DNA of 4,063 nucleotides, from the NCBI RefSeq assembly GCF_057098645.1, contig NZ_JBXSPU010000006.1. The stretch is one strand, 5' to 3'. Source of the DNA: a plasmid. A program made the translations under genes and the position numbers. The notes under the pieces are model-generated. The model was not told where the DNA came from, ran no database searches, and saw only the letters and a list, made by a program, of their open reading frames with translations. Positions 1 through 4,063 of this stretch are shown here, piece after piece (the first letter of the stretch is position 1; each line of letters begins with the position of its first letter).

Positions 1-810
1 ACGTAGTGTGTACGAAGTTGCGTTGTCAGGAAGCCCGATATTCAGAAGGTCAGCCACACGGCGGGCAGGCTCTGTCAGCCCTCCGTTCCTGAGTTCGGTG
101 CGGGAAATCTGTATTTCCAGGTTAAGCCTGTTAATCAGACGATTCTGTTCGCCGCGTTCTGTTTCGATACCGCGTGTTTCCATCGCACAGGCAGACTTTC
201 CGAGGTGAATACCAGGCGTTTTCTCAAGCCCCTGTCGCTCGTATGAACGATGGTCTATCTCTTCCTGATAACCGGCGTTCGCCAGTGCCCTGTTTGCATG
301 GTCAGCCCATGATGCCCGCCACGTCTCGGCATGTGTCCGGTCGTTCCAGTCCCTGACCTTTCCGCTGAACCCAGCAGGTCCGATAGCCCTCGTGGTCAGC
401 ATGATGTGCGCATGGGGATTTGTTTTATCCATGTGATGGAACGCCACATCAGCAATCATGCCCTGACTGACAAAGTTTTCTCTGACAAAGGCGAGAACGG
501 TTTCCCGTGCGGCATCCTGCGGCAGTTCGTGGGGGATGGCGAGTTCAATTTCCCGCGCAAGTTGTGAGTTCTTCCGGCGTTCGGCCTTCTCAACGGCATT
601 CCAGAGTTCGGCACGGTTCGTACACCAGGCAGGGGCGGTGGCGGGGGTCAGAATCACAGCCTCAGCCACACCGCTTTTGCGGGTGTAGTCGTGAGTCAGT
701 CCGGTACGCTCATCAAGCATCAGTGAACCGGAACGATAGGCAGCGGAAGCTACGGCGCTGTAGCCGCTGCTTCTGGAGATAATTTTCATGCTGAGATGAT
801 AAATCGCCAT
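1..810 (-). CDS. mobA: MobA/MobL-family (MOBQ) relaxase, N-terminal relaxase domain; partial, ORF runs off the left window edge
   Basis: Minus-strand frame is open from ATG (plus 810-808) to position 1, 270 codons with no stop (translated by hand). The product starts MAIYHLSMKIISRSSGYSAVASAAYRSG..., with Tyr at residue 25, a His-rich motif NPHAHIMLT, and ...WADHANRALANAGYQEEIDHRSYERQGLEKTPGIHLGK.... These match my recollection of RSF1010 MobA (MAIYHL..., catalytic Y25, HxH motif, ...WADHANRALERAGHDARIDHRTLEAQGIERLPGVHLG...). An upstream in-frame stop lies at 916-918. The gene is absent from the supplied ORF track because it has no in-window stop. No strong Shine-Dalgarno precedes the ATG. Confidence 0.85.
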   Translation of the reverse strand, partial: MAIYHLSMKIISRSSGYSAVASAAYRSGSLMLDERTGLTHDYTRKSGVAEAVILTPATAPAWCTNRAELWNAVEKAERRKNSQLAREIELAIPHELPQDAARETVLAFVRENFVSQGMIADVAFHHMDKTNPHAHIMLTTRAIGPAGFSGKVRDWNDRTHAETWRASWADHANRALANAGYQEEIDHRSYERQGLEKTPGIHLGKSACAMETRGIETERGEQNRLINRLNLEIQISRTELRNGGLTEPARRVADLLNIGLPDNATSYTLR

Positions 811-988
811 TTCTGCCGTAATGCCTTTTTGTAGTTTTCTTTCAGCCCCGCAGGGCGCACACAATCGAAACGGAGTGGAGATTGTATAAGTGCGCACTTC
901 GTGATTTGCCGTGCATTATGCCAGCTCAGTTTTTAAACTACCAGTGACGCGCTAAAATGCGATTTTTCATCGCGCACGGAGTTACATC
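811..988. other. Candidate oriT and divergent mobA/mobC promoter region with MOBQ-like nic-core motifs
   Basis: Intergenic region between divergent mobA and mobC. Plus strand 887-897 reads TAAGTGCGCAC. Minus strand (reverse complement of 852-860) reads GTGCGCCCT. Both resemble the RSF1010/R1162 nic core TAAGTGCGCCCT as I recall it. The two motifs sit in an imperfect inverted repeat: GCGCACACAAT (855-865) and ATTGTATAAGTGCGC (881-895). A -10-like TAAAAT lies at 953-958 upstream of mobC. Confidence 0.5.
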
Positions 989-1243
989 ATGAGCAGAACG
1001 CTCGAACAGAAGATTGCTGATGCTGAGGCGAGATTACAGCGCCTGAAGGCGAAGAGCCGGAGCCTGGACACAGCGCAGAAGGTTGTTGTGGGTGCTGCAT
1101 TGCTGGCAAAGGTCAGAAAGCCGGAGGAGGTGCAGTTGCGTGCCTGGTTACTCCAGTTCCTGAAGGCAGAGGTGACACGACAGGCTGATGTGACGCGCAT
1201 ACTGCCGCTGATTAACGAGCTGGAGGCGCTGCCAGAACAGTGA
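989..1243 (+). CDS. mobC: MobC-like mobilization accessory protein (relaxosome component), 84 aa
   Basis: ATG at 989 with a GGAG Shine-Dalgarno at 978-981 (7-nt spacer) and TGA at 1241-1243. The product contains ...AQKVVVGAALLAKV..., resembling the RSF1010 MobC motif ...RKVLVGAMILAKV... as recalled. Size and position (divergent from mobA across oriT) fit mobC. Confidence 0.65.
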   Translation: MSRTLEQKIADAEARLQRLKAKSRSLDTAQKVVVGAALLAKVRKPEEVQLRAWLLQFLKAEVTRQADVTRILPLINELEALPEQ

Positions 1244-1252
1244 TTGTATCGT

Positions 1253-1311
1253 CCGCTCGCCGCAGCCCCAGCGACCGAGCGTTAGCGAGCGAGTGGGCGA
1301 GGAAGCGGAAG
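1253..1311. other. Segment resembling the ColE1/pMB1 region downstream of ori (putative single-strand initiation / primosome assembly site)
   Basis: CCGCTCGCCGCAGCCCCAGCGACCGAGCGTTAGCGAGCGAGTGGGCGAGGAAGCGGAAG aligns at roughly 80% identity to the pBR322/pUC backbone sequence CCGCTCGCCGCAGCCGAACGACCGAGCGCAGCGAGTCAGTGAGCGAGGAAGCGGAAG, recalled from memory. That sequence lies in the region I remember as containing a PriA-dependent pas/rri site. It contains the inverted repeat GCTCGC...GCGAGC. Confidence 0.4.
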
Positions 1312-1483
1312 TGAATCAGTCGCCAGGTTGAGCACATACGCACGGTTTTTCGGCAGGTGATATGCGCTGAACCCGCATGAATACTGGGTTTCCACAGGGT
1401 TGGAGGGGGTGTATTCGAAACTTGCAATTCTGCTTTATTGCAACGCATTGTTTTTATTGGTTTTTTGTTTTCAGCACCCCAAG

Positions 1484-1492
1484 TTATCCACA
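1484..1492 (+). promoter_or_regulatory. DnaA box, perfect match to consensus TTATCCACA
   Basis: TTATCCACA at 1484-1492, immediately upstream of the AT-rich region and iterons, the typical place for a DnaA box in Rep_3 origins such as pSC101. Confidence 0.6.
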
Positions 1493-1499
1493 GGCTCGC

Positions 1500-1590
1500 C
1501 GTTAAGTTTTTAAGATCTTATTTTTAGATCTTTTTTTTTAAAACCTTTTTAGGTCTTGTAACACCATGATTTTAAAGATGTTCTGGCAAG
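1500..1590. other. AT-rich region of oriV (candidate DNA unwinding element) with two AGATCT (GATC) sites
   Basis: Strongly AT-rich, with T-runs (e.g. 1531-1539). AGATCT occurs at 1513-1518 and 1526-1531. It lies between the DnaA box and the iterons. Confidence 0.5.
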
Positions 1591-1594
1591 ATAA

Positions 1595-1678
1595 GTGGAG
1601 CTTTTGGGGGTGAAAGGTGGAGCTTTTGGGGGTGAAAGGTGGAGCTTTTGGGGGTGAAAGGTGGAGCTTTTGGGGGTG
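1595..1678 (+). repeat. Iterons: three perfect tandem 22-bp direct repeats (GTGGAGCTTTTGGGGGTGAAAG) plus a fourth 18-bp partial copy; RepA binding sites of oriV
   Basis: Perfect copies at 1595-1616, 1617-1638 and 1639-1660; partial copy at 1661-1678. The repeats are contiguous with no spacers and lie about 100 bp upstream of repA. A 22-bp unit is roughly two helical turns. Confidence 0.9.
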
Positions 1679-1687
1679 TAATCCACA
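1679..1687 (+). promoter_or_regulatory. DnaA-box-like sequence TAATCCACA (8/9 to consensus) abutting the last iteron
   Basis: TAATCCACA at 1679-1687 has one mismatch to TTATCCACA. The iteron array would then be flanked by DnaA boxes. Confidence 0.35.
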
Positions 1688-1776: not shown

Positions 1777-2478
1777 ATGTCAGATCTGATAGCTTACAAA
1801 TCAAACGCCCTTATCGAGGCAAGCTACAAGCTCACTTTGCAGGAACAGCGCTTCCTGCTGGTCTGTATCAGCCGCCTAAAATCCGGAGAAGATTCCCCTT
1901 CGCCGGATGAACAAAAAACCATGACCATCACGGCTGCAGAGTTTCATGATGCCTTTCCTGACATGGGACGGCAGCACGCTGAAGCTAGGCTCAAGGAAGC
2001 GATAGATCGCCTCTGGGACAGGTCAGTAATCATCAAGAACGAGGAAAAACGAGAAGAGTTCCGCTGGGTGCAGTACCGGGCGCAGTATTTCAAAGGTGAG
2101 GCGAAAGTAGATATCACCTTCTCCGATGCCATCATGCCGTATCTGACACAGCTCAAGGGGCAGTTTACGCGGGTAGTCGTGAAGAACGTCTCCAGCCTTT
2201 CCAGCACCTACAGCATCCGCATTTACGAGCTGCTCCAGCAGTTCCGCAGCACCGGTGACAGAACGATAGCTATCGATGATTTCCGAACCATGCTTGCCGT
2301 TGAAGATAAATATCAACAATTCAAAGACTTGAATAAGATGATAATCAAGCCAGCCATCGCCGAACTGAACGAAAAAAGCGATCTGGTTGTAGCTGTTGAG
2401 ACGATCAAAAAGGGGCGCACGGTTGTAGCCCTGCATTTTCGCTTCAAGGAAGACAAACAGATCAAGATGACGATCTAA
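1777..2478 (+). CDS. repA: Rep_3-family plasmid replication initiator (iteron-binding RepA), 233 aa
   Basis: ATG at 1777 and TAA at 2476-2478. The product has MSDLIAYKSNALIEASYKLTLQEQRFLL... and ...ITFSDAIMPYLTQLKGQFT...YSIRIYELL..., matching the pattern of pSC101-type RepA as recalled (MSELVVFKANELAISRYDLTEHETKLIL..., ...LTFSEEILPYLFQLKK...YSMRIYEWLL...). It sits directly downstream of the iterons. Confidence 0.9.
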   Translation: MSDLIAYKSNALIEASYKLTLQEQRFLLVCISRLKSGEDSPSPDEQKTMTITAAEFHDAFPDMGRQHAEARLKEAIDRLWDRSVIIKNEEKREEFRWVQYRAQYFKGEAKVDITFSDAIMPYLTQLKGQFTRVVVKNVSSLSSTYSIRIYELLQQFRSTGDRTIAIDDFRTMLAVEDKYQQFKDLNKMIIKPAIAELNEKSDLVVAVETIKKGRTVVALHFRFKEDKQIKMTI

Positions 2479-2725: not shown

Positions 2726-4063
2726 TCACTGTGACCAACCGCGATCATGTCTCCTCTCGGTGGTGTGTGTTCGTGCATCTTCCTCGCGCTGCCATTCCTC
2801 CCAGGTACGATTAAAACCCAGCGAGCGGAACAGATGATCCGGCTGTTTTTCTGGTGTGTTGACGGCAGCAAAAAGCGGTGCCTCACGGGTTTTCAGATGA
2901 AACTGCATCAGTTCTGGTGCAGGTGATATGTGGCTGTCTGCATCGTGATTTACGGCAACACCATACCCTGCATACCGTAACCCCTTATCGGTCAGCGCAC
3001 TGATGACCAGATGCCTGTTATCGGCTGAGGGAACGGCAAACGCGGGATACAGCGTACCATTAAGCCGGATAACACCGCCCAGAGAGTCATCCACGCCCAT
3101 GACCAGCAAAAGCTGAAGCTGGCGGGTTTCCCGGTCGACAGAACTCATGACCGGCATCAGCGTCGGTGGCAGACGTCCCTGCATAAAATCCACCTTCCTT
3201 GCCGCTGGTGATGGCATGGCTGGCTGGCGGTCTTCTCCAAGACAGAAAGACTCCGGCCATGTCTTCGGCTGGCGGAGATTGCGGGTATGTTGCGGCCATG
3301 TCTGGCAAACCTGCGTCAGCAGTTGCTCAAAGGTTGCAGAGGAATAAACACGTTGCAGTGGCGGACGTTGGCCGATTTCGCTTCGGTCACAGATATAACC
3401 ACTCCTGTCACGCATTAAATCAACACTCTCAAAGATTCTGGTGCGGTATTTCTCCAGCTCGTTCCCCCAGAGCGTATATTCTCCGTTCCGGTTGTGAAGC
3501 AGAAGGTAACAGGTCATTTCCCCGTTACCAGGCATGGGAGCCTCGCCATACCCCGTAACGACTGCTCTCAGCACCCCTGAATCCATAACGGCATTGTCAT
3601 TTTTCCTGAGCTGCTCCGCGCGACTACGTTCAGTATCTTCCTGTTCCTTCCGGCGCAATTCCTCTTCACGTTTAAGCAACTGGGCTCTGAGAGCTGCAAG
3701 GCCGGATTCCCCCCACTGCTGCCACTGTTTTTCAAATGCCATCTGACTCGCGGGAATGTCCTGTTTCTCCACCTTCCGGTAATGCTGTCGTAATTTTTCC
3801 ATTTGCTGGCTCAGAGACTGGATTTTTCCCTGCTCACTACGGTATTCCGGTGCCGCCCATTGCATCAGGGGAATACGGGAAAAACCGGACGAAAACGGCG
3901 ATGATTTTTTCAGGCTGGCAGCATGGCTCATCGCTTCCTTTCGTTCGGTGTTCAGCTCTTCCCAGCGTCTGCGCGTCGCCTGCATATCTGCCATCATCGA
4001 CATGGCATTACTGGTGAGTTTCCATGCCGAGTTACTGTCCTTCGGCAACGCTTCGATAATGTC
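2726..4063 (-). CDS. mobA: Long ORF with complete 3' end and frame open to the right window edge; most likely the C-terminal ~445 codons of mobA continuing across the junction of a circular molecule, otherwise a 5'-truncated gene of unknown function
   Basis: Minus-strand frame has no stop from 4063 down to TGA at 2726-2728. E. coli-like codon usage (CTG-rich). The supplied track starts at a TTG at 4048, but five further sense codons (DIIEA) precede it up to the edge, and no in-window ATG has a convincing Shine-Dalgarno. The last codon at the right edge (4061-4063) and the mobA codon at the left edge (1-3) are both complete, so on a 4063-bp circle the two ORFs join in frame (...SYTLR|DIIEALPKDSNSAWKL...) into about 715 aa. 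The N-terminal ~150 residues of this part are charged and helical (e.g. LLKREEELRRKEQEDTERSRAEQLRKN); the remainder is globular with no Walker A or other motif I can recognise. Confidence 0.6.
   Translation of the reverse strand, partial: DIIEALPKDSNSAWKLTSNAMSMMADMQATRRRWEELNTERKEAMSHAASLKKSSPFSSGFSRIPLMQWAAPEYRSEQGKIQSLSQQMEKLRQHYRKVEKQDIPASQMAFEKQWQQWGESGLAALRAQLLKREEELRRKEQEDTERSRAEQLRKNDNAVMDSGVLRAVVTGYGEAPMPGNGEMTCYLLLHNRNGEYTLWGNELEKYRTRIFESVDLMRDRSGYICDRSEIGQRPPLQRVYSSATFEQLLTQVCQTWPQHTRNLRQPKTWPESFCLGEDRQPAMPSPAARKVDFMQGRLPPTLMPVMSSVDRETRQLQLLLVMGVDDSLGGVIRLNGTLYPAFAVPSADNRHLVISALTDKGLRYAGYGVAVNHDADSHISPAPELMQFHLKTREAPLFAAVNTPEKQPDHLFRSLGFNRTWEEWQREEDARTHTTERRHDRGWSQ

Follow-up and report, generated by a model that had tools for sequence, protein, structure and literature searches.

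A putative primosome loading site of the ColE1 ssiA type beside the iteron origin of a pIGWZ12-like plasmid

The plasmid and its origin region

The window, by which we mean the whole 4063-bp stretch of DNA that was analysed, is a complete circular E. coli plasmid, and is 100% identical to NZ_CP054167.1 and to several other 4063-bp records. It is a pIGWZ12-like plasmid, i.e., it belongs to MOBQ41 and encodes a Rep_3 initiator. The MOBQ41/pIGWZ12 group was described by Garcillan-Barcia et al., and its initiator is of the Rep_3 family, PF01051 (PMC6856555). The gene content consists of mobA, mobC and repA only. The gene for the MobQ relaxase, mobA, lies on the minus strand and runs from 789 to 1 and across the circle into 4063..2726, with its N-terminal domain in 1..789 (NCBIfam MobQ, 2.4e-75). 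On the plus strand, mobC (989..1243) encodes a relaxase accessory protein and has its stop codon 10 nt before the hairpin described below, and repA (1777..2478) encodes the Rep_3-family initiator (NCBIfam RepM, 2e-51; RepE, 8e-21).

The oriT core occupies 849..901 on the plus strand, and is delimited by inverted repeats at 849-860 and 890-901, inside which ACAATC (861-866) is repeated in inverted form as GATTGT (880-885). A putative nic motif, TAAGTGCGC (887-895, plus strand), lies within the palindrome AAGTGCGCACTT (888-899); the consensus for MOBQ oriT sequences is NWACCNNTAAGTGCGCCCTYNN (PMC3832669).

In pIGWZ12, oriV comprises iterons, an A+T-rich region and DnaA boxes, all of them upstream of rep (PMC6856555). 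The corresponding parts of the window begin with a plus-strand block that is common to MOBQ41 variants (1353..1402) and that contains the DnaA-box-like sequence GTTTCCACA (1388-1396). An IncR plasmid (L007) contains a remnant that matches this block with 91% identity. A perfect DnaA box, TTATCCACA (1484..1492, plus strand), is kept in MOBQ41 variants, and is followed by A+T-rich repeats of 13-14-nt units with GATC (1507..1550), which are presumed to be the unwinding element. The iterons are 3.8 perfect copies of the 22-bp unit GTGGAGCTTTTGGGGGTGAAAG (1595..1678, plus strand), and directly after them stands TAATCCACA (1679-1687, plus strand), which together with 1388-1396 makes two one-mismatch DnaA boxes. 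From left to right, the order of parts is thus hairpin, DnaA boxes, A+T-rich region, iterons and repA, and the hairpin belongs to the rep-sense strand. The hairpin is separated by 176 nt from the perfect DnaA box, by roughly 200 nt from the A+T-rich repeats and by 287 nt from the iterons.

Homology to pMB1 sequence and a conserved fold

An earlier note on this DNA had claimed that about 59 bp between mobC and the origin resemble sequence downstream of the pMB1 origin at roughly 80% identity. This resemblance is real and somewhat closer than claimed. Positions 1253-1311 read CCGCTCGCCGCAGCCCCAGCGACCGAGCGTTAGCGAGCGAGTGGGCGAGGAAGCGGAAG, and in a global alignment with the pMB1 57-mer, 51 of 59 columns are identical (86%), with two 1-nt gaps. 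The local alignment score against the 57-mer is 74, while shuffles of the window score 20.3 +/- 2.1 (maximum 26, n=200). In both the window and the 57-mer, the element is bounded by the same words, GCTCGCCGCAG at one end and CGAGGAAGCGGAA at the other. A BLASTN comparison of the kind that the note had proposed, conducted with 1230-1340 against PLSDB, matches at least 5000 plasmid records, with typical E-values of 2e-8 to 2e-10 for ColE1-like plasmids. Among the PLSDB matches listed, the edges are sharp, and fall at query positions 24 and 81/82, i.e., at 1253 and 1310/1311 of the window.

Judged by these alignments, the nearest relative of the element is not pMB1, because Col(MG828) plasmids of 1.5 kb (87-88% identity over 1253-1340) and an IncX4 plasmid (93% over 58 nt) are closer among the PLSDB matches listed. 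The conserved unit is longer than the 59 bases originally flagged, and extends to about 1343-1345. A profile of 41 family members finds a single copy in the window (1252-1342, plus strand, E = 8e-20), and there is no Rfam match to the window.

The 57-mer itself is present letter for letter in Yersinia pestis pPCP1 (L001, 461-517), where it adjoins rop, and in pUC-type vector contaminants, of which one is exact (L029) and another differs only just past the 57-mer (L012). By reconstruction, we take the 57-mer to be the complement of pBR322 2353-2409, and presume that this is the L-strand factor Y effector site. Work from the 1980s reportedly found the hexamer AAGCGG to be common to n' sites. The sequence GAAGCGGAAG at 1302-1311 carries this hexamer, whose last five letters, AGCGG, make up the 3' side of the closing helix described below. 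A search of a phage collection returned only small, mostly unannotated records and vector-like sequences. The sole match labelled 'phiX174' is a 3164-bp record (Z35638.1) with pMB1-type sequence, and is probably vector-derived.

Copies of the element were taken from the PLSDB matches and from one scan of species-representative genomes with the pattern GCTCGCCGCAG-N25-45-GAGGAAGCG. The scan yielded about 50 distinct family members, mostly on Enterobacterales plasmid contigs, and the remainder of its output consists of chance matches in high-G+C genomes. It is important to note that the GCTCGCCGCAG and GAGGAAGCG columns are invariant in this sample because the pattern demanded both words. Between the two words, the sequence is variable yet self-complementary, e.g., TCTCAT/ATGAG, TCCTGT/ACAGG and AACTGAC/GTCAGTT, and likewise TCTTTGAC/GTCAAAG and TACTCATTC/GAATGAGTA. 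We aligned 41 distinct copies (alignment A1) and derived the fold from RNAalifold and our own pair counts.

By comparison across A1, the core of the element is an irregular hairpin of 56 nt on the plus strand (1253..1308). Its closing helix pairs CCGCT (1253-1257) with AGCGG (1304-1308), and is followed by inner pairs between CC (1260-1261) and GG (1301-1302) and between G1265 and C1298. A middle helix (1268-1272 with 1293-1297) shows double changes at five of its five pairs, and an apical helix (1276-1280 with 1285-1289) has a tandem G.A/A.G at its centre and the loop GTTA (1281-1284). This tandem is present in 39 of the 41 copies, and is replaced by Watson-Crick pairs in the other two (L091 and L105).

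Several measures support this fold. In A1, 81.5% of cells are paired, as against 21-39% when the register is slid. The covariation score is 0.218, compared with 0.102 +/- 0.008 for shuffles, none of which reaches it in 500 trials, and with at most 0.060 for slid registers. Compensatory changes affect 9 of 18 pairs and are spread over three helices. The outermost pair of the closing helix (7:63) is CG in 32 copies, GC in 5 and AU in 1, and further G-C and A-T cases occur at this pair in four short-loop variants (L058, L109, L090 and L080). Other pairs that change in kind are 25:49 (AU 26, GC 8, GU 7), 26:48 (CG 27, UA 14), 31:44 (CG 38, GC 3) and 34:41 (GC 33, AU 8). It is the closing base pair that marks the edges of the homology. 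Because G.T pairs outnumber A.C pairs by 15 cells to 1, we assign the fold to the plus strand, i.e., the strand that reads GAAGCGGAAG. A first helix model, with CTCG/CGAG as the outer stem, was superseded by the CCGCT/AGCGG closing helix with its compensatory changes at 7:63.

The earlier note had also proposed folding the single strands. The plus strand does give a hairpin, but its energy is no better than that of shuffles (z of -1.2 to -0.3). The sequence is so G+C-rich that this thermodynamic z is uninformative, and since the single-sequence energy is not significant, the structural case is a comparative one only. Many members have the consensus fold as their structure of minimum energy; for the window, the consensus lies within 1.1 kcal/mol of the minimum, and the window's own minimum-energy fold is in another register. 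Such alternative registers are permitted by a G+C-rich sequence with repeated GCGAG and CTCGC words.

The hairpin is followed by a 3' single-stranded tail (1309..1345, plus strand), which consists of AAG, a variable spacer of about 22 nt and the conserved motif GCACATACGCAC (1332-1343, core TACGC at 1337-1341). Over the 41 copies of A1, the CGC of this motif keeps a fixed distance and reaches at least 90% conservation, and the pMB1 types have CTCCTTACGCATC. Two copies (L132 and L133) have an unrelated spacer, yet keep GGCACTTACGCGC at the same distance. The match to Col(MG828) plasmids also reaches into the tail, to 1340. We considered a pseudoknot between apical GCGTA and downstream TACGC, and rejected it because the loop varies (T, C, G, A) without covariation with the tail motif. 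A cer-like XerC/XerD site was likewise rejected; by eye, nothing but the TGCGTA core recalls a XerC arm, and a XerD arm is lacking.

Position and polarity in other replicons

In ten ColE1-type plasmids with an Rfam RNAI match, the element is on the RNAII-sense strand, which leading-strand synthesis displaces. It lies about 600-660 nt away from where RNAII starts, and 35-110 nt beyond the predicted RNA/DNA switch. Four further records (L072, L073, L121 and L122) were left out of the RNAI-element distance, since each is a short contig with one of the features at either end. ColE1 ssiA, or n'-pas, has been placed at this post-switch, displaced-strand position (PMC3167613), and pCS36-4CPA has an ssi of 82 nt that is no more than 60 nt from oriV (PMC5935869). 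We equate the 57-mer region with ssiA, as is probable from its position in at least 10 ColE1-type plasmids, from these papers (PMC3167613, PMC5935869) and from the pBR322 L-strand site, which agrees with the earlier proposal that it is the ssi/pas region downstream of the pMB1 origin.

The window element is similar to ColE1/pMB1 ssiA (n'-pas, rriA) in that it belongs to the same hairpin family, adjoins a replication origin and has a conserved TTACGCA-type motif about 25-30 nt downstream of the hairpin. However, the ColE1 site is 35-110 nt downstream of an RNA-primed origin extended by Pol I, whereas the window site belongs to an iteron origin and lies about 200 nt away, on the side of the DnaA boxes and the A+T-rich region. 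In addition, the middle helix contains a tandem G.A in pMB1, where the window has C-G and A.G.

The suggestion that the element is a module shared between different replicons was borne out, as the hairpin is found with unrelated flanks in ColE1-type, ColE2-type, Col(MG828)/RepL, IncI2, IncX4 and several Rep_3 replicons. ColE2-type MOBQ42 plasmids (L005, 1038-1092; L092) have both the oriT-mobC-mobA module and the hairpin family in common with the window, and in them the hairpin lies between rep/ori and mobC, about 95 nt past a ColE2-like ori and on the rep-sense strand. However, the MOBQ42 hairpin is inverted with respect to mobC and oriT. With respect to the fork, the homologues in ColE1-type plasmids are on the lagging-strand template; if the leading strand of ColE2-type plasmids runs away from rep, their hairpin would be on that template too. 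We presume that the ColE2 ssi mapped by experiment is this copy; the ssi of ColE2-type plasmids was reportedly described by Nomura et al. 1991 (Gene 108:15; cited in PMC6856555). The IncI2 copy is about 10 kb from the record start, where repA was assumed to be, so a link to an origin is not shown for all copies.

Four distant Rep_3-family replicons are arranged alike on the rep-sense strand, where the hairpin comes first and is followed by a DnaA-type box, an A+T-rich stretch, 22-bp iterons and rep. These are the window, a Cedecea plasmid (L055), L105 and the IncX4 plasmid (L003). A pas beside an iteron origin is thus nothing out of the ordinary. The RepA proteins of L055 and L105 are 28-29% identical to that of the window, and A+T-rich stretches are in the matching position in L055, L105 and L003. 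No MOBQ nic motif was found near the element in L055 or L105, in up to 12 kb searched. The IncX4 (R6K-like) origin is similar to that of the window in its hairpin, DnaA-like box, A+T-rich region, six 22-bp iterons and Rep_3-family rep, all on the same strand. The IncX4 plasmid differs in being large and conjugative, its iterons are unrelated and its Rep is longer (334 aa). By description, a comparable order (ssi, conserved region, four iterons spaced by roughly 22 bp, rep) is found with the ssi-like palindrome of pHW126, pIGRK and pIGMS31. In contrast to the window, the initiator of these plasmids is an HTH Rep, and their mode of replication is debated between rolling-circle and theta. The ssi of pIGRK and pIGMS31 has been reported to be similar to the ssi of diverse replicons and to be non-essential.

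Within MOBQ41, the hairpin is nearly invariant. Across six variants, 2 of its 56 columns are variable (3.6%), as compared with 40% in mobC, 51% in the tail, 38% in the spacer to the DnaA box, 68% in the iterons and 77% in the rep leader. Remnants also occur inside large plasmids, namely a degenerate copy in IncR L007 and a copy in IncK2/Z L006 within an inserted Col(MG828) unit.

Interpretation as a primosome loading site

We consider it likely that the plus strand of 1253-1345 is a signal of the ColE1 ssiA or phiX174 type (n'), i.e., a putative host PriA-dependent primosome loading site for vegetative replication. Comparison of the copies establishes the homology, the folded strand, purifying selection, and a fixed position and polarity beside origins; that the site depends on PriA, how the events follow one another and which way replication runs are what we infer. 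From the inversion in MOBQ42, the Rep_3 layout and the invariance within MOBQ41, we argue that the primary association of the hairpin is probably with the vegetative origin. A pas is a fork-like hairpin at which PriA, PriB, DnaT and DnaC load DnaB (PMC5778457). The likeness to the phiX174 primosome assembly site is one of proposed working principle, in that a fork-like hairpin in SSB-coated single-stranded DNA is recognised by PriA (PMC5778457).

Other classes of ssi and other types of element were also considered. A DnaA-dependent signal (ABC-primosome) does not fit, as the hairpin is without a DnaA box: no match to TTWTNCACA with at most one mismatch falls within 1253-1345, and matches are found at 1388, 1484, 1679 and elsewhere. 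A single-strand promoter of the Frpo/ssiD type seems not to fit either, because -35 and -10 hexamers were not found in 1253-1345; there is no sigma-70-like promoter there on either strand, in a linear-sequence scan that is a weak test for a single-strand promoter. An intrinsic terminator of mobC was set aside as well, since the G+C-rich hairpin is followed by AAGTGAATCAG with no T-run, and 1253-1345 contains no terminator-like site. Finally, an RSF1010-type ssi is specific to a plasmid primase, and no cognate primase is recognisable in this plasmid: the C-terminal 445 aa of MobA have no match in Pfam (E <= 0.001), NCBIfam or PDB sequences, although a primase of novel fold is conceivable. Given the lack of a recognisable plasmid primase, priming presumably depends on host proteins.

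The earlier note had spoken of a lagging-strand or transfer-associated module. The association with the origin stands, and the case for transfer is weaker, because the element is inverted relative to oriT and mobC in MOBQ42. It might nonetheless be supposed that a PriA-type signal is kept mainly for conjugation, so that it enters the recipient early as a single strand and starts complementary-strand synthesis there. In RSF1010 and R1162, it is the mobC-sense strand that is nicked, and recipients make use of the origin ssi sites that the transferred strand carries; RSF1010 has one priming signal on this strand. The window has a similar layout of mobA, oriT, mobC and then an origin with iterons and priming signals, so that its gene order mirrors that of RSF1010. 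On its plus strand, the inverted repeat 861-866/880-885 stands directly before TAAGTGCGC (887-895), which is the MOBQ oriT pattern (PMC3832669), and the absence of a detectable plasmid primase also fits with a role in transfer. RSF1010 ssiA and ssiB are recognised by that plasmid's own RepB' primase (PMC8567376), of which no counterpart is recognisable here. From the sequence of oriT, the plus strand is probably the transferred one, with the hairpin about 358 nt 3' of the putative nic. However, the nic motif is inside a 12-bp palindrome, and the strand assignment is therefore not certain. Moreover, in MOBQ42 plasmids with the same oriT/mobC module, the element has changed strands with respect to mobC and oriT, while its polarity relative to rep and the origin is kept. 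The mob-module homology with these ColE2-type plasmids stops at about 1225, short of the element, and L055 and L105 carry the element beside oriV without a MOBQ nic motif in up to 12 kb. We therefore regard a signal kept mainly for conjugation as improbable. The same site could also prime complementary-strand synthesis in the recipient, and a transfer role appears possible in this plasmid, though not in general.

The sharp homology edges, the unrelated flanks in many replicons, and the remnants in the large IncR (L007) and IncK2/Z (L006) plasmids would all be expected of a functionless recombination scar acquired from a ColE1-like or Col(MG828) plasmid. Such a passenger is nevertheless very unlikely in light of the near invariance of the hairpin among MOBQ41 variants that differ from one another at 38-77% of columns in mobC, spacers and iterons, of the position and polarity common to four distant Rep_3 lineages, and of the compensatory substitutions across the family, which indicate continuing selection on the fold. 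This selection might instead act on RNA, e.g., on a structure that stabilises or terminates the mobC transcript at its 3' end, or on a read-through structure. The hairpin begins 10 nt past the mobC stop codon on the sense strand, the folded strand is the sense strand of the nearest transcription in every replicon class examined (RNAII, ColE2 rep and Rep_3 rep), and G.U and tandem G.A pairs are equally acceptable in RNA and DNA. Yet the hairpin lacks a T-run, 1253-1345 has no terminator- or promoter-like site, Rfam has no match, and the neighbouring gene is different in every replicon. Since the ColE1-type homologues have also been described as single-stranded DNA priming signals (PMC3167613, PMC5935869), we give the RNA hypothesis very little credence. 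A similarly low estimate applies to the idea that the element is chiefly a copy-number or multimer-control accessory, as for the ssi of the pHW126 family, and not a priming site for fork assembly. Deletion of the ssi is tolerated in pIGRK and pIGMS31, but copy number rises and multimerisation is rapid, and the part order of these plasmids (ssi, conserved region, iterons, rep) is identical. However, pIGRK, pIGMS31 and pHW126 are likened to the window by description only, and their phenotype fits a defective priming step, with no need for a separate function. In addition, the tail has no XerC/XerD-type site, its resemblance to XerC arms being confined, by eye, to the TGCGTA core.

For a host PriA-dependent loading site, the following sequence of events can be proposed. 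RepA and DnaA would open the A+T-rich region, and unwinding would spread about 200 nt leftward, freeing the plus strand of 1253-1345. The freed strand would fold into the irregular 56-nt hairpin with its 3' single-stranded tail, resembling a fork, and host PriA would recognise the junction of hairpin and tail. PriB, DnaT and DnaC would then load DnaB onto the plus strand, on which the helicase would travel 5' to 3', i.e., rightward through the origin. DnaG would prime, and the first primer on the plus strand, extended leftward, would become the leading strand of the opposite (leftward) fork. In bidirectional initiation, the first primer laid down by each helicase becomes the leading strand of the opposite fork. 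The model would suit origins at which Rep and DnaA load one helicase only. If forks leave leftward only, the hairpin would be on the leading-strand template, unlike in ColE1 ssiA, and if replication is strictly unidirectional, the hairpin would have a different role.

A broader hypothesis, which we put forward tentatively and consider doubtful, is that a whole class of Rep_3 iteron origins in enterobacteria has the pas as an integral third component, in the fixed order pas, DnaA box, unwinding element, iterons and rep. Under this hypothesis, Rep and DnaA would load a helicase on one strand, and the PriA restart machinery would provide the second helicase and the first leading-strand primer, so that these plasmids would be partly PriA-dependent, like ColE1. 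In MOBQ41, the site might also prime the recipient strand, about 358 nt from nic.

PriA-type ssi in ColE1, ColE2, F, R6K and R100 were reportedly recognised in work from the 1980s up to 1991 (Nomura et al. 1991). The element is a further example of a well-known and very widespread plasmid module, and ssi have already been reported in iteron plasmids. Because this kind of element is of such long standing and iteron plasmids are already among its reported carriers, the gain is incremental. The MOBQ4 paper (PMC6856555) makes no mention of an ssi in pIGWZ12-type plasmids. Our additions are modest: the layout is seen to be constant among the Rep_3 origins, and the fold is made explicit with support from covariation. 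This comparative fold, with its AAGCGG closing helix, covarying middle helix and tandem-G.A apical helix, offers concrete mutations with which to probe how PriA recognises natural pas sites.

The pIGWZ12/MOBQ41 family is represented by hundreds of PLSDB records, and it also serves as a vector backbone. If the element is functional, it would bear on vector design (the minimal replicon, stability and multimers), on host range and on establishment after mobilisation. A very common family of small cryptic plasmids in E. coli and Salmonella would then lean on the host's PriA replication-restart system for part of its origin function.

Sequences flanking the hairpin

The ColE1/pMB1 ssiA-type hairpin (window 1253-1308, + strand) is followed, about 25-30 nt on its 3' side, by the motif GCAC-N-TACGC-AC (window 1332-1343), which is kept in most family members. 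It is also found in L004, in the IncK2/Z (L006) and ColE2-type MOBQ42 (L005) records, in Yersinia pestis pPCP1 (L001), and in the MOBQ41 variants L132 and L133, where the spacer is wholly different, yet the motif is retained. No conservation of the motif was seen in the Rep_3 replicon of Cedecea (L055), and no covariation was detected between the motif and the apical loop of the hairpin. The possibility that the motif is a Xer site was considered and rejected.

Further downstream, a 50-nt block containing a DnaA-like box (window 1353-1402) is conserved in all MOBQ41 variants. A 131-kb IncR plasmid carries a stretch (L007 3001-3116) that is 91% identical to window 1336-1450, and it also carries a degenerate copy of the hairpin and an 80%-identical Rep_3 fragment between IS26 and ISKpn26. 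This region appears to be the decayed remnant of a pIGWZ12-like plasmid that had integrated.

Copies of the hairpin in other records

In IncI2 mcr-1 plasmids, a 90%-identical copy of the hairpin lies directly after hicAB (L002 3001-3056, pMCR-1_Msc_2), approximately 10 kb from the start of the record; the mobC/relaxase oriT region is about 2.5 kb away. This copy is on the strand opposite to the putative transferred strand.

Other copies appear to be out of place (L029, L012, L017, L019, L010 and others, plus H136-H146). Some unlikely hosts, namely a Caldipriscus MAG and Paracoccus salsus, have assemblies containing pUC/pMB1-type copies that include lacZ-junction sequence, and further ColE1-type copies occur in assemblies of Streptococcus infantis, Cutibacterium porci and Streptomyces chilikensis. 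The element is also present in several records of 1.4-5.3 kb that were deposited as 'phages' (H136-H146). All of these copies probably reflect vector or plasmid contamination, or mislabelling.

Mobilization region and iterons

Within the oriT core, a perfect 12-bp palindrome, AAGTGCGCACTT (window 888-899), encloses the putative nic motif, and AAGTGCGC is therefore identical on either strand. The palindrome also takes part in a larger inverted repeat (849-860/890-901), of which it forms the distal arm. No more than 50 nt into the coding sequence of mobA (window 740-770), GCAGCGG and CCGCTGC form the arms of a separate, perfect 7-bp inverted repeat, inside which CTAC pairs with GTAG. This repeat includes AGCGGAAG (+ strand) and does not match the ssi profile, which was built from 41 hairpin copies.

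The C-terminal 445 residues of MobA (window 2726-4063, - strand) matched no NCBIfam model, no Pfam model (E <= 0.001) and no PDB sequence. In RSF1010, the corresponding position is occupied by a primase domain. In the MOBQ41 variants L131, L132 and L133, a 36-nt insertion just before the mobC stop codon (aligned to window ~1238) adds 12 residues to the MobC C-terminus.

The iterons clearly differ between MOBQ41 plasmids whose hairpins are near-identical (GTGGAGCTTTTGGGGG, GTGAACATTTCGGGGG and GCAATATGATTTAAGG; window 1595-1678 compared with L131-L135). This combination suggests that one MOBQ41 backbone serves several incompatibility or specificity groups.
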